The translations under genes were made by a program, and so were the position numbers. DNA of 46,048 nt from assembly GCA_012798795.1 (NCBI GenBank), contig JAAZMN010000131.1, positions 1 through 46,048 of the forward strand, in the 5' to 3' direction. Below, piece by piece: positions 8,593 through 45,024 of this stretch. The notes below the pieces were generated by a model. It searched no databases, had not been told where the DNA came from, and saw nothing but the letters and a program-made list of their open reading frames with translations. Source of the stretch: Bacillota bacterium. Lineage in GTDB: Bacteria > Bacillota > Limnochordia > Darwinibacteriales > DTU012. Position 1 is the first letter of the stretch. The number at the start of each line of letters is the position of its first letter.

Positions 8593-8812
8593 ATTAAGTT
8601 TTGAAGAGGCTTTGACAAATTTAGAAGGGATCATTAAACAGCTGGAAGATGGGGAGATTACCTTAGAACAATCATTAAAGCTATTTGAACAAGGGGTAAA
8701 ACTAGCGCGGATATGTACAGCAAAACTCGATGATTATGAAGATAAAATTGAGATTCTGTTGGAAAAGGACGGAGAGTTTTTACGCGAACCTTTTAGCTGT
8801 GAAGGAGAATGA
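8576..8812 (+). CDS. xseB: Exodeoxyribonuclease VII small subunit
   Basis: 78 aa with the SFEEALTNLEGIIKQLEDGEITLEQSLKLFEQGVKL signature. It overlaps the xseA 3' end by 17 nt. Confidence 0.9.
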   Translation: MSDDLKLSFEEALTNLEGIIKQLEDGEITLEQSLKLFEQGVKLARICTAKLDDYEDKIEILLEKDGEFLREPFSCEGE

Positions 8813-8819
8813 AATTACT

Positions 8820-9704
8820 ATGAATCTAGAAAAGTATCTTAAAGAGAAGGCTGAGATTATCGAAAGAGCATTGGTAGATAGATTACCCAGTGAAAATACA
8901 GTTCCTCATGTGATTCATCAGGCCATGCGTTATTCCTGTTTGGGCGGGGGTAAACGCCTGCGTGCTATTTTAGCTTTAGAAGCCTGCAGCGCAGTGGGGG
9001 GGAATCCTGAAACTGTCCTGGATTTTGCTTGTGCAATCGAAATGATTCATGCATACTCGCTAATTCATGATGATCTTCCAGCCATGGATGATGACGATTA
9101 CCGCCGCGGTAAATTAACGAATCATAAAGTTTATGGAGAAGGGATTGCCGTATTAGCCGGCGATGCTTTATTAACTCATGCTTTTGAAATTTTAACTTAC
9201 ATGAGCAAGTATTTAGACGCTGAAATGGTAGTACAGATAATTAAAGAAGTAAGTGAAGCTTGTGGGTCTCAGGGTTTAATAGGGGGACAAGTAGTCGATC
9301 TAAAATCCGAAGGCGAAAATATTGATCTTAATACATTAGAATATATCTATCAAAATAAAACCGGGAAATTGATTTTGGTAGCTTTACGGGGAGGTGCTAT
9401 CATCGGCGGAGCAACTGCTCAGCAATTAGCAGCCGTTACTTTATATGGCGAGAACTTTGGATTAGCGTTTCAGATAACTGATGATATCCTCGATGTTGTC
9501 GGTGATACAAGTAAGTTAGGTAAAGAAGTCGGAGCTGATTTACGACGCCAAAAATCAACATACCCTAGTTTATTTGGTTTGACCAAAGCCAGAGAAATTG
9601 CTAAAAACTGTATCAGCCAATGTGAAAAAGCTTTAGTCGTTCTACCCAAACGGAATGATTATTTGCATGCATTAGCTAGGTTTGTGTTGGAACGGGAGTA
9701 TTAG
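8820..9704 (+). CDS. ispA: Farnesyl diphosphate synthase (polyprenyl synthetase)
   Basis: The first Asp-rich motif (LIHDDLPAMDDDDYRRG) and the second (ITDDILD) are both present. The start is ATG 8820, since the 8730 extension overlaps xseB and has no support. Confidence 0.9.
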   Translation: MNLEKYLKEKAEIIERALVDRLPSENTVPHVIHQAMRYSCLGGGKRLRAILALEACSAVGGNPETVLDFACAIEMIHAYSLIHDDLPAMDDDDYRRGKLTNHKVYGEGIAVLAGDALLTHAFEILTYMSKYLDAEMVVQIIKEVSEACGSQGLIGGQVVDLKSEGENIDLNTLEYIYQNKTGKLILVALRGGAIIGGATAQQLAAVTLYGENFGLAFQITDDILDVVGDTSKLGKEVGADLRRQKSTYPSLFGLTKAREIAKNCISQCEKALVVLPKRNDYLHALARFVLEREY

Positions 9705-9738: not shown

Positions 9739-9752
9739 AAGTATTGCTTAAG

Positions 9753-10364
9753 GATGAATGACGCAGTATTCTAGTCATTGATTTCAGTTCAAAGACGGGC
9801 CTAAAAATCCGTTGAGGGCATAACGATGAAGTCCCTGGTGGTGGCCTTCTACGCCCAGTCGAGGGTTGCTAGTGGGGGTTAAGATGGTAGGGCGATCTAC
9901 AATGGCATGTAGGCGTTGACCCTTTCATCATGGAGACCTAAGTTTGTGGATGTGCGGGAGACTGTACATTTATGGCTTAGGAGAGAACCTGCACTCGGTA
10001 CGTAAACATAGTATTATTTGCACTAATGTGCGGGGTGCAGAGTAGCCTGCCTTGAGCGGTGTAGGAGGGATAGCTATTTTTCCATTAGGCTGCCAAAGGC
10101 CAAGGCACCTATTGCTTGAAACTTACACTGCAAAAGAGGCTAGAATTGAATAATCAATGTTGAGGAAAACTCCTAGACTGTTTCCTTTGCGAAAGTGGGC
10201 TGAGGATTACGGTGTGGACTAAGTGGTAATCTAGCCTTGCTGATGGTGACACAGCGAAAAGATCGGAAAAGGGAAACCGCCGACTACGGTGACGAGTTGG
10301 ATGATCTTTGGGAAAACCTGCTAGACCTAAGTCACAATCTTTACTCACTCCGCTGTCATTCATC
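9753..10364 (+). ncRNA. ole: OLE (ornate, large, extremophilic) RNA, about 612 nt
   Basis: The 685-nt gap has no credible plus-strand ORF. A 10-bp closing helix pairs GATGAATGAC (9753-9762) with GTCATTCATC (10355-10364). Several nested helices are listed in findings. The segment looks more G+C-rich than its flanks. The locus ispA-[RNA]-membrane protein-dxs matches the published OLE context. Confidence 0.8.
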
Positions 10365-10389
10365 TACATATTTATAGGGAAAGGGTCTT

Positions 10390-10974
10390 ATGAAAAACAT
10401 TAGGCACAGTCTATTTATAGGTTTAATTACATTTTTTATTTCGGTAATCATTAACCTTAGTAGTTCTGCAATTTTGGCCGTATCTCCCGTTACTGTCAGT
10501 TTTATACTGCTGTTTTTTATTGTGTTATTAGGGATAGTTTTTGACATTATCGGAACTGCAGCAGCAGCAGGTACTGAAGCACCCTTCCATGCTATGGCTT
10601 CGGATCGGATTGCCGGAGCCAAACAGAGTATCTGGTTAGTGCGTAATGCGGATAAGGTAGCTACATTTTCTAACGATGTTGTTGGAGATATTGCCGGTAC
10701 AATCAGCGGTGCCATCGGTGCATCCATCATTTTTCATTTCACCCTTGGAGGTCCAAGAATTAACGCAGATGTAATTAATACATTTTTAATTGGATTTATT
10801 GCGGCAGTAACAGTAGCGGGAAAAGCAATAGGGAAAAGTGCTGCAATTTCTCGTTCTACAGAGATACTGTATTTAGCTGGTAGAGTTCTTTATAATATAG
10901 AGAAATTAGGAATAGATATCACGGGAAATACAAAGGATAAACGGAAATTTAATAATGAAAAGAAAAGAAATTAA
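10390..10974 (+). CDS. oapA: OLE-associated protein A-like small membrane protein
   Basis: 194 aa with about four TM helices, a conserved-looking loop (APFHAMASDRIAGAKQS...FSNDVVGDIAGTISGA) and a Lys/Arg-rich C-terminal tail (KDKRKFNNEKKRN). It begins 25 nt after the RNA closing helix with no terminator between them, in the position of oapA between OLE and dxs. Confidence 0.75.
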   Translation: MKNIRHSLFIGLITFFISVIINLSSSAILAVSPVTVSFILLFFIVLLGIVFDIIGTAAAAGTEAPFHAMASDRIAGAKQSIWLVRNADKVATFSNDVVGDIAGTISGAIGASIIFHFTLGGPRINADVINTFLIGFIAAVTVAGKAIGKSAAISRSTEILYLAGRVLYNIEKLGIDITGNTKDKRKFNNEKKRN

Positions 10975-11011: not shown

Positions 11012-12871
11012 TTGCTTGAAAACATTCAATCTCCTCAGGAATTACATAAACTTAATTTGTTTGAGCTAACAGAGTTAGCTGAAGAAATACGCCAAAAAAT
11101 CATTTCTACAGTTGTTACTACGGGAGGGCATTTAGGAGCTAATTTAGGAGTTGTTGAGCTTACGTTAGCACTGCATTCTGTATTAAACAGTCCGGAAGAC
11201 AAGATAATTTGGGATGTTGGGCATCAGTGTTATCCGCATAAATTAATCACAGGACGCTACAATGATTTTGATTCTTTAAGGCAGAAGGGCGGTATATCAG
11301 GATTTCCCAATCCGGATGAGAGTCCTTACGATTGTTTTGGTGTAGGCCACAGTTCTACATCAATTTCTGCAGCTGCAGGTATGGCTATAGCACGCGATAT
11401 ACAAAACAAGGATTTTGTAGTGGCAGCTGTTATCGGAGATGGAGCGCTGACCGGTGGTTTAGCTTTTGAAGCCCTTAACCATGCGGGCCAATTAGATACC
11501 GATTTGGTTGTCGTGTTAAACGATAATGCTATGTCAATTGCTAATAATGTAGGAGCATTAAATAACTACTTAAATAAGCTGCGTCTAGATCCTAAGTTAT
11601 GGCGGGCTAGAACCGAACTTGAGAGTTTCATTAAGCGTATTCCGGCTGTCGGTGAAGTGATGAGTAAATTTGGATTAACACTTAAAGATACAATTAAGAG
11701 TTTACTTCCCGGTCAGCTTTTTGAAGAACTGGGTTTTAGTTATTTCGGCCCGTTTGATGGCCATAACATTAGGCAGCTGCAGAGAGCAATTAAAGATGGT
11801 ATAGCCCGCGGAGGTCCAGTTATTATTCATGCAGTAACTCAAAAAGGCAGGGGCTACGCTCCTGCTGAAGAGGAACCCAGCAAATATCACGGGCTTCGCC
11901 CAAGTAATCAAAGTACTTCTAGACAGTGTACTAGTGTATCCACCAGTTTCAGTTCGGTTTTTGGCGATAGTTTAGTTGAACTTGCCGACCAAGAACGAAG
12001 AATAGTTGCAGTAACAGCTGCGATGAAAGATGGTACAGGACTAACTAAATTTGCCGACAAATATCCCGAACGATTTTTTGATGTAGGTATTGCCGAGCAG
12101 CATGCACTTACATTTTCTGCTGGATTGGCAATTCAAGGTTTAAGACCTGTTGTAGCTGTATATTCTACTTTTTTACAGAGAGCTTATGATCAAATAGTAC
12201 ATGATATTTGTCTGCAAAATTTACCGGTGATTATTGCGATTGATCGAGGTGGTGTAGTTGGCGATGACGGACCCACTCATCACGGTATATTTGATCTTAG
12301 TTATTTAAGGCATATTCCCAATTTAACTTTATTAGCACCGAGAAACGGCGATGAGTTAAAGGCCATGCTTAAATGGGCACTTGCTCAGAATGGTCCAGTA
12401 GCCATTCGTTATGCGAAAGCAAATACGAGTATATCTCAAGAGATTACTTTTGCCGAGGAACACCAAATACCCAGTGAGGTTTTAACTTATGGCAGCAGCA
12501 CATGTGCCATTCTTGCTGTCGGTAATATGGTCGATGTGGCACTTGAGGCAGCTGTTATTTTAGAACCCGATATTAAATGCAGTGTAGTCAATGTCCGTTC
12601 TATTAAACCGCTGGACAAGTCTACGATTTTAGCAGTAGCAGGTCAAGCCGACCTGATCTGCACAGTTGAAGACAATGTTATTGCCGGGGGTTTCGGCAGT
12701 TGTATATTGGAATTGTTCAGAGAACAGGATGGGAAAAAAAGGATCATTAATTTTGGTTATCCTGATCAGTTTGTTCCGCAAGCAAGAATTGATGAATTAC
12801 ATAGAATGTATAATTTGACTTCCGAAGGTCTGGCAAAAGAAATTTATGCTTGTGCGGTTTTAAATCATTAG
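11012..12871 (+). CDS. dxs: 1-deoxy-D-xylulose-5-phosphate synthase
   Basis: 619 aa with a TTG start after AGGAG. Motifs include GGHLGANLGVVELT, the ThDP motif GDGALTGGLAFEALN...LNDN and AEQHALTF. Confidence 0.95.
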   Translation: MLENIQSPQELHKLNLFELTELAEEIRQKIISTVVTTGGHLGANLGVVELTLALHSVLNSPEDKIIWDVGHQCYPHKLITGRYNDFDSLRQKGGISGFPNPDESPYDCFGVGHSSTSISAAAGMAIARDIQNKDFVVAAVIGDGALTGGLAFEALNHAGQLDTDLVVVLNDNAMSIANNVGALNNYLNKLRLDPKLWRARTELESFIKRIPAVGEVMSKFGLTLKDTIKSLLPGQLFEELGFSYFGPFDGHNIRQLQRAIKDGIARGGPVIIHAVTQKGRGYAPAEEEPSKYHGLRPSNQSTSRQCTSVSTSFSSVFGDSLVELADQERRIVAVTAAMKDGTGLTKFADKYPERFFDVGIAEQHALTFSAGLAIQGLRPVVAVYSTFLQRAYDQIVHDICLQNLPVIIAIDRGGVVGDDGPTHHGIFDLSYLRHIPNLTLLAPRNGDELKAMLKWALAQNGPVAIRYAKANTSISQEITFAEEHQIPSEVLTYGSSTCAILAVGNMVDVALEAAVILEPDIKCSVVNVRSIKPLDKSTILAVAGQADLICTVEDNVIAGGFGSCILELFREQDGKKRIINFGYPDQFVPQARIDELHRMYNLTSEGLAKEIYACAVLNH

Positions 12872-18953: not shown

Positions 18954-18990
18954 AAGGACGAAGACAAAATGTTTTCGTCCTTTGTCATTG
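18954..18990 (+). terminator. Hairpin terminator after spo0A
   Basis: AAGGACGAA (18954-18962) pairs with TTCGTCCTT (18974-18982), 9 bp with an 11-nt loop. The trailing T tract is short (TTTGT). Confidence 0.5.
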
Positions 18991-19005
18991 TTAAGAGGTG
19001 TTATT

Positions 19006-20127
19006 ATGTATCAAGGGATAGTAAGACTAGGAACTAAAACTAAAGATTTAGCAAAGAGACTCAAACCCGGGGAAATTGCTTTAATCGATCATCAAGATCT
19101 AGATGCAATGGGAGCACTTGGATTAGCAGAAACCGGAATTGAGGTAGTACTGAATGCTGCAGATTCCATTACAGGTCGCTATCCAAATCTTGGTCCTAAA
19201 TTGTTACTAGAAAGAAAAATTAAGGTCATTGATCAGTTGGGGCAAGATGTTTTTGCTGAGGTTAAAGATGGCGAACAGCTGCGAATTGTCGAAAACAGCA
19301 TATACTTAAATGATAATTGTATAGCCGCAGGGCGACTGCTAGATCAAAATTTTGTTTTGACAGCTATGGAACAGGCTAAAGCAAACATTGATAATGAAAT
19401 TGATAAATTTGTGGATAATACCATAGAATACATGCAGAAAGAAAAGGATTTGTGGTTAACTGAATTTAGGATACCAAAAATTAAAACAGCTATAGCTGAC
19501 AGACATGTGGTAGTTGTTGTACGGGGAATAAACTATCAGGAGGATCTTAGTGTAATAGGTTCATATATTGAAGAAATGACCCCGGTATTAATTGGAGTGG
19601 ACGGAGGAGCAGATGCTCTAATAGAATTCAAACACAAACCTGATATCATTATCGGCGATATGGATAGTATAACAGATCAAGCACTAAAAGTTGGTGCAGA
19701 AATACTAGTCCATGCTTATCCCGACGGCCGCTGTCCCGGTGCCAAACGATTATCTGAACTAGGTGTTAGATATAAAATTTTTCCTGCTCCGGGTACAAGT
19801 GAAGATATTGCACTGCTTCTAGCTTATGAATTGGGAGCACAGCTAATTGTAGCAGTTGGACTTCATTCAAATCTTATAGACTTTCTGGAAAAAGGCAGGC
19901 CGGGAATGGCATCAACATTCTTGACTCGCATGAAAATAGGTTCAATTCTAGTTGATGCTAAAGGAGTAAGTCAGCTGTATACTGGGAAATCGGGGCTGCT
20001 GCACTTACCATTATTAATTGCTGCATTAATTCCAATTATTTTAATAATTATGCTGGCAGCGCCTTGGCGTGGTCTAATTAGGCTTTTATGGCTGCAGATT
20101 AGGCTGTTTATAGGAGGAATACTATAA
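19006..20127 (+). CDS. steA: SteA-family protein (putative cytokinetic-ring-associated, thiamine pyrophosphokinase-like domain)
   Basis: The N-terminus, VRLGTKTKDLAKRLKPGEIALIDHQDLD...NAADSITGRYPNLGP, matches the SteA family. There is a central TPK-like GDMDS motif and a C-terminal TM. ATG 19006 follows AGAGGTG. Confidence 0.75.
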   Translation: MYQGIVRLGTKTKDLAKRLKPGEIALIDHQDLDAMGALGLAETGIEVVLNAADSITGRYPNLGPKLLLERKIKVIDQLGQDVFAEVKDGEQLRIVENSIYLNDNCIAAGRLLDQNFVLTAMEQAKANIDNEIDKFVDNTIEYMQKEKDLWLTEFRIPKIKTAIADRHVVVVVRGINYQEDLSVIGSYIEEMTPVLIGVDGGADALIEFKHKPDIIIGDMDSITDQALKVGAEILVHAYPDGRCPGAKRLSELGVRYKIFPAPGTSEDIALLLAYELGAQLIVAVGLHSNLIDFLEKGRPGMASTFLTRMKIGSILVDAKGVSQLYTGKSGLLHLPLLIAALIPIILIIMLAAPWRGLIRLLWLQIRLFIGGIL

Positions 20128-20128
20128 T

Positions 20129-20845
20129 ATGCATATCGGATTTAGATACCATATTGCTTCATTGGTCGCTGTTTTTTTCAGCCTTTTTCTCGGAATTTTG
20201 GTAGGCAGCATTCTATTTCAGGATGATTTATTAATTCAAGAACAGGATATTATAATCGGTGAATTAGAAACTCGCTTTGAGGAATTGGAATTACTGATTT
20301 ATACAATGCAGGGTAATTTAAACAAAAAAAATGAAAAAGAACAGATGCTAACAATGGGTTGGGATCAAATTCGCAGTGTTTTTATTGCTGACAGGCTAAC
20401 CGAGCATGATGTAATTTTTTATAAAAGTAATGATTCATATAATATTAAAAGGCTCGTCACTTTAGTTGAAGAAGCGGGGGCTAGTGTTCTTGGGTGTTTT
20501 AACTGGCCGCAGGAATATGATCAATTAAAAGTACAGATCAGTAAATTAAGATTAAATGAAAAGCATGAACAGATTGTAATTATTTGGGCAGAGGATTCGT
20601 TGATTGATATCGCTTTACAAGGAATTGACTATTTTAAGGAACTTGGTTGGAAAATAAGTCTGCTTCAGCCATTTTTAAGCGGTGTTTCAATGCAGAACCT
20701 GGCTTCAGAAGCACTGATAGTCAATAATGCCGATACGTTTTTAGGAGAACTAGCGTTAATTCAAGGGCTTAGTGGAAATTTAAGTGGAATTTATGGTTAT
20801 AAAAACAATGCAGTTAATCTATTACCCGTATTGGATATGGAGTAG
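20129..20845 (+). CDS. MctB/DUF3186-like ('copper transporter' family) membrane-anchored protein
   Basis: The N-terminus FRYHIASLVAVFFSLFLGILVGS is the characteristic family signature. It starts 1 nt after the steA stop. Confidence 0.6.
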   Translation: MHIGFRYHIASLVAVFFSLFLGILVGSILFQDDLLIQEQDIIIGELETRFEELELLIYTMQGNLNKKNEKEQMLTMGWDQIRSVFIADRLTEHDVIFYKSNDSYNIKRLVTLVEEAGASVLGCFNWPQEYDQLKVQISKLRLNEKHEQIVIIWAEDSLIDIALQGIDYFKELGWKISLLQPFLSGVSMQNLASEALIVNNADTFLGELALIQGLSGNLSGIYGYKNNAVNLLPVLDME

Positions 20846-20854
20846 CTGAAAAAC

Positions 20855-21538
20855 ATGAAAATTACAGCATTAGTTCCAGCTTATAACGAAGCTGAAAATA
20901 TAGCAGACACTATTCTGGCTGTTACTGGAATTGACCAGATTAATCAAATAGTGGTTATTGATGACGGTTCAACAGATAATACTGCCAAAATCGCTGCCGA
21001 ATATCCGGTTGAATTAATTACTTTAGTAGAAAACCAAGGTAAAGGACAAGCCTTAAACGCAGGATGGCGCAGTTATTCTGCTGACATTTATTTGTTGATT
21101 GATGCGGATTTAAGAGCAAGTGCAATTTATGCTAAAGAGCTGCTGCCGCCGATTATCTCTGGTAAATACGATATGAGCATCGCCAATTTTTCTTCAGATC
21201 AAGCAGCTGAAAATCAGGGTAAAATGGGTTTCGGGATTGCAAAAACAACGGCAAAGTGGGGAATTAAACTATTGACGGGACACAGATCTAACAGCCCATT
21301 GTCAGGGCAGCGGGCAGTTGTCAGTGAAGTGCTTCAAAGCTGTGGTGGTTTTGCTGAAGATTTTGGCTGTGAGGTTGCATTAACCATTAAAGCACTGAAA
21401 CAGGGATATCGTTTAATCGAAGTGGATTTACCAATGACCCATCGAGCTACCGGAAGAGATCTAGCCGGATTTAAACACCGCGGCAGACAGTTTTTTATGG
21501 TCATTAAACAGTTATATAAGGCTTGGAGGAATTACTAG
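20855..21538 (+). CDS. Family 2 glycosyltransferase
   Basis: GT-A fold: ALVPAYNEAENI, VIDDGSTDNT and a DAD (DxD) motif at LIDADL. Confidence 0.8.
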   Translation: MKITALVPAYNEAENIADTILAVTGIDQINQIVVIDDGSTDNTAKIAAEYPVELITLVENQGKGQALNAGWRSYSADIYLLIDADLRASAIYAKELLPPIISGKYDMSIANFSSDQAAENQGKMGFGIAKTTAKWGIKLLTGHRSNSPLSGQRAVVSEVLQSCGGFAEDFGCEVALTIKALKQGYRLIEVDLPMTHRATGRDLAGFKHRGRQFFMVIKQLYKAWRNY

Positions 21539-21539
21539 A

Positions 21540-22346
21540 TTGTACCGGGTATTAGTGCTGACAGCGATTAACTTTTTATTAACCGTGTATTTAATGCCGA
21601 TGCTAACTGAGATGATCAGGCCGCGTCAAGCAGGTCTGAATTATCAGAACCAAGAGGTTCCTATAGGGCTTGGTCTGGTGTTTATATTGACCGTAGTGCC
21701 TATAACAGTACTAGCGATTTTTTTAAGAGCAGTACCTCTTAGCACAGGTGTTATATATATTATAACTATTTTGAGTTTTGGATTCTTGGGTATAATTGAT
21801 GATACCATCGGCAGTCGGGAAGCTCGTGGCTTTACAGGACATTTTCGTGCTTTATTCCAAGGTTTATTAACAACCGGTGCGATAAAAGCTCTATTCGGGG
21901 TAATTCTCGCTTTTTTAGTTGCTGTAATTAAAGCAGACGGAGTAATTAATACTATTTTAAATGTTTTCAGTATTACATTGTTTGCCAACCTGTTTAACTT
22001 ATTGGACGTTCGGCCAGGAAGGGCAGGCAAGTTTTATCTATTTTGGTTTTTACTCTCATATATTTTTGGCTATCCCTCGATAATAATGCTTTTTCTATTG
22101 GCTGCTGTAATCGGATATCTGCCTTGGGATTTGAAAGCCGAAGTGATGATGGGTGATGTAGGTTCAAATGTGCTAGGGGCTATAATCGGATTAAGTGTAA
22201 CGGAATTTTCAATTACAAATAAGGTAATTGTTGTAGTAGTATTAGCAATAATCCATTTATATGCTGAAAAAGCCTCCTTATCACAGTTGATTGAAAAAAT
22301 CCCCATTCTTAATTATATTGATAACATAGGGCGAAAAAAAGTCTAG
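21540..22346 (+). CDS. Polytopic membrane protein, MraY/WecA-like (GT4 polyprenyl-phosphate sugar-phosphate transferase family)
   Basis: About 8 TM helices with GIIDD and NLLDVRPGRAGK loops resembling the GT4 cytoplasmic loops. The TTG start is adjacent to the GT2 stop. Confidence 0.6.
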   Translation: MYRVLVLTAINFLLTVYLMPMLTEMIRPRQAGLNYQNQEVPIGLGLVFILTVVPITVLAIFLRAVPLSTGVIYIITILSFGFLGIIDDTIGSREARGFTGHFRALFQGLLTTGAIKALFGVILAFLVAVIKADGVINTILNVFSITLFANLFNLLDVRPGRAGKFYLFWFLLSYIFGYPSIIMLFLLAAVIGYLPWDLKAEVMMGDVGSNVLGAIIGLSVTEFSITNKVIVVVVLAIIHLYAEKASLSQLIEKIPILNYIDNIGRKKV

Positions 22347-28228: not shown

Positions 28229-28480
28229 AACTGTCCTCCTCTCCACCAATCAATAACAATTACTGATATCGTTATATCGCAATACCATGATATCATATTT
28301 TCCATCGCTGATTCAAAGGAAAAATAGTGTTATTGTTGAAGATTATTACACTTAGGTTAATAAAATCAGTCAAAGAAAATAAAAGTTAGTGTAAACTAAA
28401 GTCTTGTAATTTTTCCATAATAGTGATATTCTATAATTGACTCCGTGCTCAAGGGAGATGGTTATAAGGAGAGATCCGAT

Positions 28481-29812
28481 TTGACCATTCGCGGAGTCAT
28501 TTTTAATTGTTTTTTATGCGTTTTAATGCTGGTTTTAACAGCAGCTGTCACCGAAGCCTCCGGTAATGTTTATGGTATTATCAATTTTAAGCCATTCAGC
28601 CTGCAACATAGATTAACCTGGAATTTAGACTATGATTTAACCAAAGAACACAATTTATCAGGTAAAATTGTTATTAACAGCAGCAGTGAATCTGGCCTCA
28701 ATTTTGAATTCTGCAATTGGATATTCAACTATCAGCCGGATTCAATCAGACAACTAACACTTTCTTACAATCATCCGCTGATTACATCTGCGGATATTTT
28801 CAGAATCCTACATAAAGATTATTATGGAATGGATGGATTGTCTCTCGCTTATCAACAAGAGGATCCTGAATTTCTAGTTATAATCATCGAAAAAGCTTCT
28901 ATTAGCGGCGGATTAACAAGTCCTGCAGCTTATTTCCAGGTGTCTCAATTACTGCGGCAGTTAAGTTTAAAATTATCCGGATTGCGATATGATTCCGGTT
29001 ATGTTTGGACTCAAATTTCTGATACGAATAATTGGGATTTTTTGCGTAATTTGGGAGATATATTGGTAATAGAGGGTTGGGTTGATTTAACTCAGTCGCA
29101 TTCTGTGAATTTCGGTTATGGTTATCAGCACCGAGTTTATGAACAGCAGGGAGTTGCAGAGTCTTTTTGCAGCCAAGCGCTGGTAGTTAACGGCAAATTC
29201 AATCATGACTTTTTCTATTTTGAGCCTGGTTTTCGCTGTATTGGTAAAGATTTTGATTGGCCTTTAACAAAAACAAAATCCTATGCCCGTGATCGAATTG
29301 GATTTGTCAGTAAAACCGGATTTAACTTGAATCAGTGGAAAATCACGCTTAATTTCGATCAGCTGAGTAATATGGACAAAACCCGTCGGTATTTAAATTC
29401 AAATATGAGAATTGAGTATCGAAAAAATGGCCGAGTTGGTTATATGACGATAAATTGGCAGCCAAACCAAAGAATTACCTATGGATACCGCAGAGGAAAA
29501 TTGAACCTGGAATGGCGTATGGATTTACCGCAAGTCAAACTTCAATATGTACTAAAAAACCACGAAGTAAAGCTTGCCAGTTCATCTTTGAGTCAGCATC
29601 GCATAGAATATAGGTATAGTGGTGATGTGAATTTCCGGGTGATCTATAAACTGGATACCAAAACTCAGCGGGATTATTTCTATGCCTGCACTCGTTTTGA
29701 GAAAGAGGGGTGTCGGCTTGAGCTTAGTTATGGCGAAAGCGATAATGGGCAGTTAGCAGCAAAATTTGATCTTGAACCCAGTTTACAATTTTCTTGGGGT
29801 TGGAGTTGGTAA
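28481..29812 (+). CDS. Secreted beta-strand-rich protein of unknown function (beta-barrel-like)
   Basis: It is a long ORF. The favoured start is TTG 28481, 9 nt after AAGGAG (28466-28471), which gives the signal peptide MTIRGVIFNCFLCVLMLVLTAAVTEA/SG. The protein is rich in Y, W, N and Q in alternating patterns and ends ...LQFSWGWSW. I recognise no family. Confidence 0.7.
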   Translation: MTIRGVIFNCFLCVLMLVLTAAVTEASGNVYGIINFKPFSLQHRLTWNLDYDLTKEHNLSGKIVINSSSESGLNFEFCNWIFNYQPDSIRQLTLSYNHPLITSADIFRILHKDYYGMDGLSLAYQQEDPEFLVIIIEKASISGGLTSPAAYFQVSQLLRQLSLKLSGLRYDSGYVWTQISDTNNWDFLRNLGDILVIEGWVDLTQSHSVNFGYGYQHRVYEQQGVAESFCSQALVVNGKFNHDFFYFEPGFRCIGKDFDWPLTKTKSYARDRIGFVSKTGFNLNQWKITLNFDQLSNMDKTRRYLNSNMRIEYRKNGRVGYMTINWQPNQRITYGYRRGKLNLEWRMDLPQVKLQYVLKNHEVKLASSSLSQHRIEYRYSGDVNFRVIYKLDTKTQRDYFYACTRFEKEGCRLELSYGESDNGQLAAKFDLEPSLQFSWGWSW

Positions 29813-29813
29813 A

Positions 29814-30083
29814 ATGCGGTATTCCGATTTGGCTGGCAAAGAAATAGTATGTTTTGACGAAGGTATTCGCCTGGGCATTGTCAATGATACAGATTTAATT
29901 ATTAACACAAAGACCGGTGAGGTAGATTCGATTATAATCCCATATGGCAGAGGTTTTTTTAGAAAGAGAATGATTGTAATACCTTGGAAAGGCATTAAAA
30001 AAATCGGCCGCGATTTAATTATCGTAGATTTATCTACAGCTCAGGATTACGAAGATATCGTTCGCAGACTTGATCTCGAATAA
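29814..30083 (+). CDS. ymxH: YlmC/YmxH-family sporulation protein (PRC-barrel)
   Basis: The YmxH signature runs MRYSDLAGKEIVCFDEGIRLGIVNDTDLIIN...GEVDSIIIP...IPWKGIKKIGRDLIIVD. ATG 29814 lies 1 nt after the upstream stop. Confidence 0.85.
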   Translation: MRYSDLAGKEIVCFDEGIRLGIVNDTDLIINTKTGEVDSIIIPYGRGFFRKRMIVIPWKGIKKIGRDLIIVDLSTAQDYEDIVRRLDLE

Positions 30084-44788: not shown

Positions 44789-44794
44789 TAAGCA

Positions 44795-45024
44795 AAACGT
44801 TGAAGAGGAAAGTATAAGAAGTAAGAGGTTATAGCGAACCGGGGAGGGTGGAAGCTCGGCACCAATTCTTCTTTAGAAGATCACCTCGGAGTTGGCAGCC
44901 TGAAAGTTGCAGTAGGGCTGCTCGGTTGTTCCGTTACAGCTATTGAGTGAAGGCTTTTAGAGTCTTAACTAGGGTGGTACCGCGAGCTGCTCTCGTCCCT
45001 GAATTTTGGGGAAGAGAGTTTTTT
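44795..45024 (+). promoter_or_regulatory. T-box leader (tRNA-Ile specific) with terminator/antiterminator
   Basis: The conserved T-box sequence AACTAGGGTGGTACCGCG lies at 44966-44983. The candidate specifier AUC (44880-44882) is followed by A. The terminator pairs CTCTCGTCCC (44989-44998) with GGGGAAGAGAG (45007-45017) and is followed by T7. It sits directly upstream of ileS. Confidence 0.85.

Follow-up and report, generated by a model that had tools for sequence, protein, structure and literature searches.

A previously unannotated family of predicted outer-membrane beta-barrels in Limnochordia

INTRODUCTION

Several large beta-barrels described from outer membranes invite comparison with the protein reported here. 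The FimD/PapC ushers are 24-stranded, TonB-dependent receptors (BtuB, Cir, PfeA, and FepA) are 22-stranded, and LptD, which is general to lipopolysaccharide (LPS) bacteria, has 26 strands. The tethering porin OmpM (e.g., OmpM1 of Veillonella parvula) is an outer-membrane barrel of a diderm Firmicute. In this study, we analyzed a 46,048-nt stretch of DNA (contig JAAZMN010000131.1, positions 1 to 46,048 of the forward strand; referred to here as the window) and, within it, a 443-aa open reading frame (ORF) that ends immediately upstream of ymxH. An earlier reading of the sequence (the original prediction) had suggested that this ORF encodes a secreted protein of the outer-membrane barrel type.

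The ORF represents a previously unannotated family that is new within the known class of outer-membrane beta-barrels. In our judgment, its product is probably a Limnochordia-specific, Sec-exported barrel of the type handled by the beta-barrel assembly machinery (BAM), expressed from its own housekeeping-like promoter and serving as a large gated channel or translocon. The barrel and the class of the host are supported by computation, and we infer the BAM dependence, the channel function, and the vegetative expression.

RESULTS

Predicted structure

A confident model was obtained with AlphaFold2 (AF2) from an alignment of 28 family sequences (predicted local distance difference test [pLDDT], 92.5; predicted TM-score [pTM], 0.78; five models, pLDDT 91.4 to 92.5), whereas the model from eight sequences was unusable (pLDDT, 49; TM-scores of its Foldseek matches, about 0.2). 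In the confident model, the only helix is N-terminal and corresponds to the signal peptide. The rest is an all-beta meander of hairpin-connected strands, the first of which (residues 25 to 36) directly follows the signal peptide. The coding sequence and the parts of its product are as follows.

28481-29812 (+): precursor coding sequence of the predicted outer-membrane beta-barrel (443 aa; stop codon included)
28481-28558 (+): signal peptide, residues 1 to 26, MTIRGVIFNCFLCVLMLVLTAAVTEA/SG (charged n-region, h-region, and T-E-A before a putative signal peptidase I site)
28769-28837 (+): long conserved loop L3, residues 97 to 119, NHPLITSADIFRILHKDYYGMDG, between strands 5 and 6 (non-strand; pLDDT 83 to 94)
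29243-29293 (+): long conserved loop L7, residues 255 to 271, GKDFDWPLTKTKSYARD (AF2 model and alignment)
29732-29782 (+): long conserved loop L13, residues 418 to 434, GESDNGQLAAKFDLEPS (AF2 model and alignment)
29783-29809 (+): last beta-strand with the beta-signal-like motif LQFSWGWSW (residues 435 to 442 are strand in the AF2 model)

A Foldseek search of PDB with this model returned 244 matches at E <1e-3. The top 50 were all transmembrane outer-membrane barrels, and there was no beta-solenoid, beta-taco, sandwich, or propeller among them. The barrel of the original prediction was thus borne out by structure prediction, i.e., by a barrel-like model rather than a soluble sandwich or propeller. 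The TM-scores of the matches, all normalized by query length, were as follows.

FimD usher (24 strands): TM-score 0.46 to 0.50
BtuB and Cir (22 strands): TM-score 0.44 to 0.47
LptD (26 strands): TM-score 0.38 to 0.41
16-strand porins (16 strands): TM-score 0.22 to 0.28

When the model is parsed as 26 strands, the even-numbered strands are followed by turns of 2 to 5 residues, and odd-numbered strands precede all three long loops (23, 17, and 17 residues). Both the N and C termini lie on the short-turn side. The predicted topology would be the classical one of outer-membrane proteins, with the termini and short turns in the periplasm and the long loops outside. A dyad pattern was also seen across the 28 sequences and 26 strands: residues on one face were 69% hydrophobic and 9% charged, and those on the other were 27% and 33%, respectively. 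Because the modeled barrel is so large, its hydrophobic face would be able to face only lipid.

The most conserved residues of the family fall in three non-strand segments (residues 97 to 119, 255 to 274, and 418 to 429), and the long loops were confidently modeled (pLDDT, 83 to 98). L3 carries the family motif NxPHxTSxDxFRxLH, in which R108 is at least 90% conserved. The motif of L7 is FxSPLAKTNxYTPNRxG, and where the next strand begins, R272 and G274 reach the same level (at least 90%). L13 contains GEYDRGNLxAGF (residues 418 to 429), with G423 at least 90% conserved. Four residues (P328, R374, G418, and D421) are invariant in the 28-sequence alignment, the last two of them in L13.

The C terminus, LQFSWGWSW, has W at positions -1, -3, and -5, F at -7, and L at -9. 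This aromatic alternation, on which the original prediction had been built, is conserved in 27 of the 28 members (i.e., F or W at -1, aromatic residues at -3 and -5, and hydrophobic residues at -7 and -9). Among the 63 window ORFs of at least 100 aa, it was found in this one alone. Given its retention in 27 of 28 members, the alternation is not due to chance. The hydrophobic face of the last strand is 99% hydrophobic across the family.

Comparison with known barrels

The best structural matches were the FimD/PapC ushers (E, 1e-7 to 8e-7), which share with the query a C-terminal aromatic residue and the form of a large outer-membrane barrel made from a single chain. However, the query shares no sequence similarity with them (no PF00577 match in any member) and has neither a plug nor N- or C-terminal periplasmic domains, its longest non-strand insert being 23 residues. 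Its mature length is about 417 residues, compared with about 800 for FimD/PapC, and no chaperone or pilin genes lie near its gene. The 22-stranded TonB-dependent receptors gave many matches (E, about 1e-7 to 1e-6; TM-score, 0.40 to 0.47) and have a similar barrel size, but the query lacks their plug (PF07715), TonB box, Pfam match, and N-terminal domain.

LptD (Foldseek E, 2e-6 to 6e-6) resembles the query in its strand number, which we estimate at about 26 for the query. The query nevertheless has no LptD/OstA Pfam match and no N-terminal beta-jellyroll, is much smaller, and has no LptE-like partner that we could see; its family is confined to Limnochordia, whereas LptD has the wide range mentioned above. 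OmpM shares with the query the setting of a diderm Firmicute, but it turned up solely among weak matches of the first, low-confidence model and was not in the top 50 of the good model. The query has no SLH match in Pfam, and its barrel is much larger than that of OmpM. With no family signature, plug, jellyroll, SLH, or TonB box, the query was rejected as an LptD, usher, TonB receptor, or OmpM.

Family and host lineage

Sequence comparison with Pfam, NCBIfam, and PDB gave no match for the single protein, and the 28-member profile had none in PDB. None of the 28 members matched Pfam, and none had a sequence match in NCBIfam or PDB, in agreement with the original prediction, which had not recognized the family. 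A word-indexed search of 5.8 billion proteins recovered seven relatives (98 to 33% identity), and a profile search of the same database added one member. An exhaustive profile hidden Markov model search of 1.84 billion cluster representatives (50% identity) found 34 sequences, 29 of them at E <1e-10, including full-length proteins of 404 to 434 aa with only 16 to 24% identity to the query. Every named database entry of the family is a "hypothetical protein." A contig scan of species representatives used patterns of the close subfamily only and detected one species; distant members in GTDB were outside its scope. The family is genuine, if small.

Members of four lineages could be traced to Limnochordia (orders DTU012 and DTU010). 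One protein (P0007) is encoded on SKHL01000323 (GCA_007116995.1), SKHL being "Limnochordia bacterium CSBr16_202" (GTDB c__Limnochordia; o__DTU012), and another (P0032) on SLOZ01, which is "Limnochordia bacterium CSSed165cm_473" (o__DTU010; both from the supplement of PMC6704655). A third (P0016) occurs in the soda-lake metagenome-assembled genome (MAG) PWHI01, for which Peptococcaceae bacterium 1109, assigned by GTDB to Limnochordia, DTU010 (PMC8225771), is the nearest reference genome. In NCBI, the P0030 cluster includes a protein named "[Limnochordia bacterium]." The neighboring genes in the window are 54 to 88% identical to those of three relatives (L003, L005, and L007) and in the same order, so the window presumably belongs to the same clade; window YmxH is 80 to 88% identical wherever ymxH is present (L001 included).

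Three lineages of Firmicutes are diderm, Limnochordia among them (PMC10665443, PMC7924749, and PMC11448272). The Limnochordia-like diderm spore-former that the original prediction had offered as host is therefore supported, members being found in c__Limnochordia MAGs of a class documented as diderm. Homologs confined to monoderm genomes and devoid of the C-terminal aromatic motif, which would have spoken against an outer-membrane protein, were not what we found: the motif is present in 27 of 28 members, and members lie in Limnochordia. The window species itself is widespread and uncultured, occurring also on ENA contigs of up to 265 kb and in 51 collection blocks.

Start codon and signal peptide

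The ORF lister reported the gene as 28445-29812 (+), with a GTG start and 455 aa. On sequence grounds, TTG at 28481 is the better start, because it is preceded by the following Shine-Dalgarno (SD) sequence, because homologs begin at an equivalent M-x-I-R-G-V-F-F, and because what database gene calls show as "KGD/KGE" N-terminal extensions is the conserved leader AAGGGAGA translated in frame.

28466-28473 (+): SD sequence AAGGAGAG for the TTG start (about 7 to 9 nt upstream; AAGGAGG kept in homologous loci)

The leader contains an ATG whose frame matches that of the ORF in L003 but not in the window. Public gene calls (P0001, P0007, P0008, P0017, and P0023) start the family ORFs too far upstream, at GTG 28445 or at an ATG inside GGGAGATG. 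Such calls add 9 to 12 spurious residues (window 28445-28480), which would mask the signal peptide in automated predictions.

The signal peptide is the sole Kyte-Doolittle hydrophobic stretch of the protein, and an equivalent signal-like N terminus is present in all full-length family members. Its putative cleavage site (TEA/SG) was assigned by reading the sequence. The 443-aa ORF with this signal peptide and the amphipathic peptides to which the original prediction had drawn attention (RIEYRYSGDVNFRVIYKLD, CRLELSYGES, and LAAKFDLEPSLQF) were all located in the translation.

Genomic context

Besides the window, eleven distinct loci were compared (L001, L003/L004, L005 to L008, L015 to L018, and that of the window's own species, L009 to L012). 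The barrel gene was at the same place in all loci examined. Upstream of it lie genes for an M16 peptidase and/or dUTPase_2, or a divergent GH18 gene where M16 is missing. The downstream order is ymxH, yflT, dapB, dpaA, dpaB, asd, dapG, and dapA; the dapB-dpaAB block expected there was thus found. The first of these genes in the window is as follows.

29814-30083 (+): ymxH, YlmC/YmxH PRC-barrel protein of 89 aa (TIGR02888, 73.3 bits; cut-off, 44.2)

YmxH also matched PF05239 (44.2 bits; cut-off, 21.2; E, 1.9e-11). The barrel stop codon (TAA, 29810-29812) is 1 nt from the ymxH ATG (29814), a spacing that the original prediction had given correctly, and the GGAG SD sequence of ymxH lies inside the last codons of the barrel gene. 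The gap is 2 to 3 nt in L001, L003, L005, and L007 and 38 to 40 nt in the more distant members of L006, L016, and L018. Tight coupling to ymxH (1 to 3 nt) is limited to the closer subfamily.

Three loci of about 55% G+C content (L008, L015, and L017), all collinear with the window, keep the barrel gene beside dapB and lack ymxH and dpaAB. L017 belongs to DTU010, as does the nearest reference of the L015 MAG. L008 is also without spoIVB, steA-mctB, both pda genes (two pdaA-like genes), GH18, yflT, and tepA; it keeps spo0A, a sleB-like gene, and the M16 gene. The retention of spo0A and the sleB-like gene is common to all three loci, and the lineage seems to be part-way through the loss of sporulation.

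The barrel gene is the fastest-evolving gene of the region (43% identity versus 58 to 88% for its neighbors in L003 and 22% versus 49 to 84% in L016), a rate that is consistent with surface exposure of the product. In Bacillus subtilis, the M16 gene mlpA abuts ymxH-spoVF directly. Because monoderm Firmicutes have M16-ymxH-dpaAB with no barrel gene, the latter looks like a lineage-specific insertion into the ancestral Firmicutes M16-peptidase-ymxH junction. An M16 gene (MlpA/YmxG-like) and the dUTPase_2 gene of L016 and L018 precede the barrel gene in most of the relatives compared (L001, L003, L008, and L016 to L018). Both are missing in the window and L007, where just about 170 to 230 nt (window, 28250-28480) separate the divergent GH18 gene from the barrel gene.

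Two functional links to neighboring genes were considered and rejected. One was between the M16 peptidase and the barrel, by analogy with protease-associated import through TonB receptors; neither the window nor L007 has the M16 gene, and its product resembles the cytoplasmic MlpA type found beside ymxH in monoderm Firmicutes. The other would have made YmxH or YflT a periplasmic plug of the barrel, and neither has a signal peptide.

Promoter and leader

Two further elements lie upstream of the start codon.

28404-28432 (+): promoter-like element, with -35 TTGTAA (28404-28409), a 17-nt spacer, and an extended -10 TGATATTCT (28424-28432) (pattern match)
28441-28459 (+): conserved leader element CTCCGTGCTCAAGGGAGAT, predicted to fold into a CUCC/GGAG hairpin whose loop is conserved

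The pattern TTGnnn-17-TGnTAnnnT was matched exactly, at the same relative position, in six loci (the window, L006, L007, L016, L017, and L018), and near matches were present in L003, L005, L008, L015, and L001. A promoter-like element thus occurs in all 11 loci, whatever the upstream gene. Its sequence is TGATATAAT in L016 and TGGTATAAT in L018, with a perfect TGnTATAAT in both. A generic sigma-70 scan omitted the window element, which scores 8 of 12 against a threshold of 9. The element would be a housekeeping, sigma-A-like extended -10 promoter, unlike the Bacillus sigma-E, -F, -G, and -K consensus.

The leader (CTCCGYGCCCARGGGAGAT; 19 nt) begins about 8 to 14 nt past the promoter and is followed by the SD sequence and start codon. 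It is near-invariant in 10 of 11 loci (the window, L001, L003, L005, L006, L008, and L015 to L018), although the proteins drop to about 20% identity, and is hence more conserved than the protein. It combines an anti-SD-like CUCC with an SD-like GGGAG upstream of the real SD sequence. Its predicted fold has a free energy of -16.8 kcal/mol (z, -2.8). Rfam gave no credible match for the leader (best E values, 2.5 and 8.8, far below gathering scores). The element could act in translational control or as an mRNA-stabilizing hairpin. No terminator-like site was found between 28000 and 31700, and read-through into ymxH and beyond is therefore possible.

Other features of the window

A full-length OLE (Ornate Large Extremophilic) RNA was detected at 9742-10375 (+) (RF01071; 467.8 bits; E, 2.6e-134), between ispA (8730-9704) and dxs (11012-12871). 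The ORF directly after it (10390-10974) encodes a 194-aa membrane protein that is probably OapA. This looks like an OLE RNA locus, here in a genome of the Limnochordia type.

Downstream of divIVA, at 44791-45003 (+), is a T-box leader (RF00230; 137.7 bits). On a longer contig of the same species, the gene after it codes for a class I tRNA synthetase of 918 aa, which fits ileS. At 18982-22346, downstream of spo0A, the window carries a block of steA-like, mctB, GT2, and GT4 (MraY-like) genes, with tlyA-nadK-argR-recN upstream. This steA-mctB-GT2-GT4 block is conserved in DTU012-type loci and absent from L008. Together, the tlyA-nadK-argR-recN and steA-mctB genes recall the actinobacterial recN-steA-mctB arrangement.

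DISCUSSION

The preferred course of events can be set out as follows. Transcription would start at the gene's own sigma-A-like extended -10 promoter and pass through the conserved leader; in sporulating members, ymxH, possibly yflT, dapB, and dpaAB would follow in the same direction with no intervening terminator, and in the window ymxH would be translationally coupled to the barrel gene. The precursor would be exported by Sec and lose its 26-residue signal peptide. As the motif and the host class suggest, BAM would then insert the mature chain of about 417 residues via the C-terminal aromatic beta-signal. The product would be a single large antiparallel barrel of about 26 strands (range, 24 to 26) with periplasmic turns of 2 to 5 residues, its hydrophobic strand face turned to lipid and its charged face to a water-filled lumen. 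It is likely that L3, L7, and L13 reach into the lumen or cover it, where they would act as a constriction or gate and form the functional site. In the vegetative outer membrane, the protein may act as a translocon or gated channel, and a general channel function in the envelope is more probable than a role confined to sporulation.

Several points weigh against this reading. The AF2 model has 27 assigned strand elements, and a count of 26 needs residues 161 to 171 and 175 to 180 to be one kinked strand. Barrel closure, the exact strand number (24 to 26), and the placement of the loops are deduced from the model, and the best TM-scores to known barrels reach 0.50 at most. The roughly 57 loop residues seem too few to close the lumen of a 26-strand barrel, for which a partner plug, a flattened barrel, or a lower strand count may account. 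The channel function is our interpretation of the fold, and the promoter was assigned with Bacillus-type consensus sequences. For the diderm state of DTU012 and DTU010, we relied on literature about the class and on the barrel protein itself; a search for outer-membrane biogenesis genes past the window end, on the longer contig of the same species, met only ileS, lspA, rluD, pyrR, Ku, and LigD.

Some of these points would also suit a different explanation, in which the barrel is a modeling artefact and the protein is a secreted beta-rich one (i.e., a beta-solenoid, amyloid-like, or spore-envelope or S-layer-associated protein) of a cell with no true outer membrane. The confident model depends on 28 sequences, the eight-sequence attempt having failed; closure is read from that model, with TM-scores no higher than those just given; and several Gram-negative-staining Bacillota are actually monoderm (PMC11448272). 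We nevertheless regard this explanation as very improbable. Five independent models agreed (pLDDT, 91 to 92; pTM, 0.78), all 50 best structural matches were membrane barrels, the contrast between a hydrophobic and a charged face extends through 26 strands, short turns opposite long loops are an arrangement in keeping with an outer-membrane protein, the F/W signal at the C terminus is conserved, and the members belong to a class documented as diderm. The barrel model, the conserved C-terminal motif, and the diderm class effectively exclude the spore-envelope protein of a monoderm that the original prediction had named as its alternative. A link to sporulation in a diderm host, which it had also proposed, calls for a closer look. 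On this view, the mother cell would produce the protein along with YmxH and dipicolinate synthase, and insertion into the outer forespore membrane would take place from the intermembrane space. That membrane would become the outer membrane of the germinated cell, with the barrel as a dipicolinate or nutrient channel or a seed of outer-membrane identity. The outer membrane of diderm sporulators is reported (Tocheva et al., 2011) to be regenerated from the outer spore membrane, which we counted in favor of such a role. Also in its favor are the adjacency of ymxH, which is invariant in seven sporulation-competent loci (gap of 1 to 3 nt in five of them), the lack of any terminator-like site found from the barrel gene to dapB/dpaA, and the nearby spore-cortex and dipicolinate genes (sleB-like, pda, GH18, dpaAB, tepA, and ylzJ).

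We consider this role unlikely all the same. The gene is kept in DTU010-type loci without ymxH and dpaAB (in L008, also without spoIVB, pda, GH18, and tepA), and its retention in loci lacking sporulation genes argues against a sporulation-restricted role. The promoter found in the 11 loci is of the TTGnnn-17-TGnTATAAT type, unlike the Bacillus consensus sequences for sigma-E, -F, -G, and -K. The M16-peptidase-ymxH-dpaAB arrangement exists in monoderm Firmicutes with no barrel gene (mlpA-ymxH-spoVF in B. subtilis), and the tight coupling is a property of the closer subfamily only. The sporulation link of the original prediction was thus not upheld: the adjacency to ymxH/dpaAB is real, but it is best taken as synteny and not as evidence of a sporulation function. 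A bolder form of the same idea, to which we give equally little credence, would make the barrel a dedicated part of outer-membrane rebirth in a sporulating diderm. In this version, the mother cell would coexpress it along with YmxH and the dipicolinate genes, and once in the outer forespore membrane it would either form a channel or be the first barrel there (BAM-independent or BAM-seeding) and convert that membrane into the future outer membrane. The CUCC/GGGAG leader would be a translational switch that sets the timing.

Should the barrel indeed have about 26 strands within about 417 residues and lack a plug, no giant outer-membrane barrel described so far would be as compact. Were it an ordinary vegetative porin-like channel, its value would lie mainly in annotation. 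Of the three diderm Firmicutes lineages, Limnochordia has been studied least, and its outer-membrane proteome is almost unknown; these lineages are central to the debate on the origin or loss of the outer membrane. The barrel family provides a simple sequence marker of an outer membrane in uncultured Limnochordia genomes and a candidate for a major channel or translocon. Where it abuts ymxH and dpaAB, it also offers a concrete gene for asking whether outer-membrane proteins enter the outer membrane of the spore.

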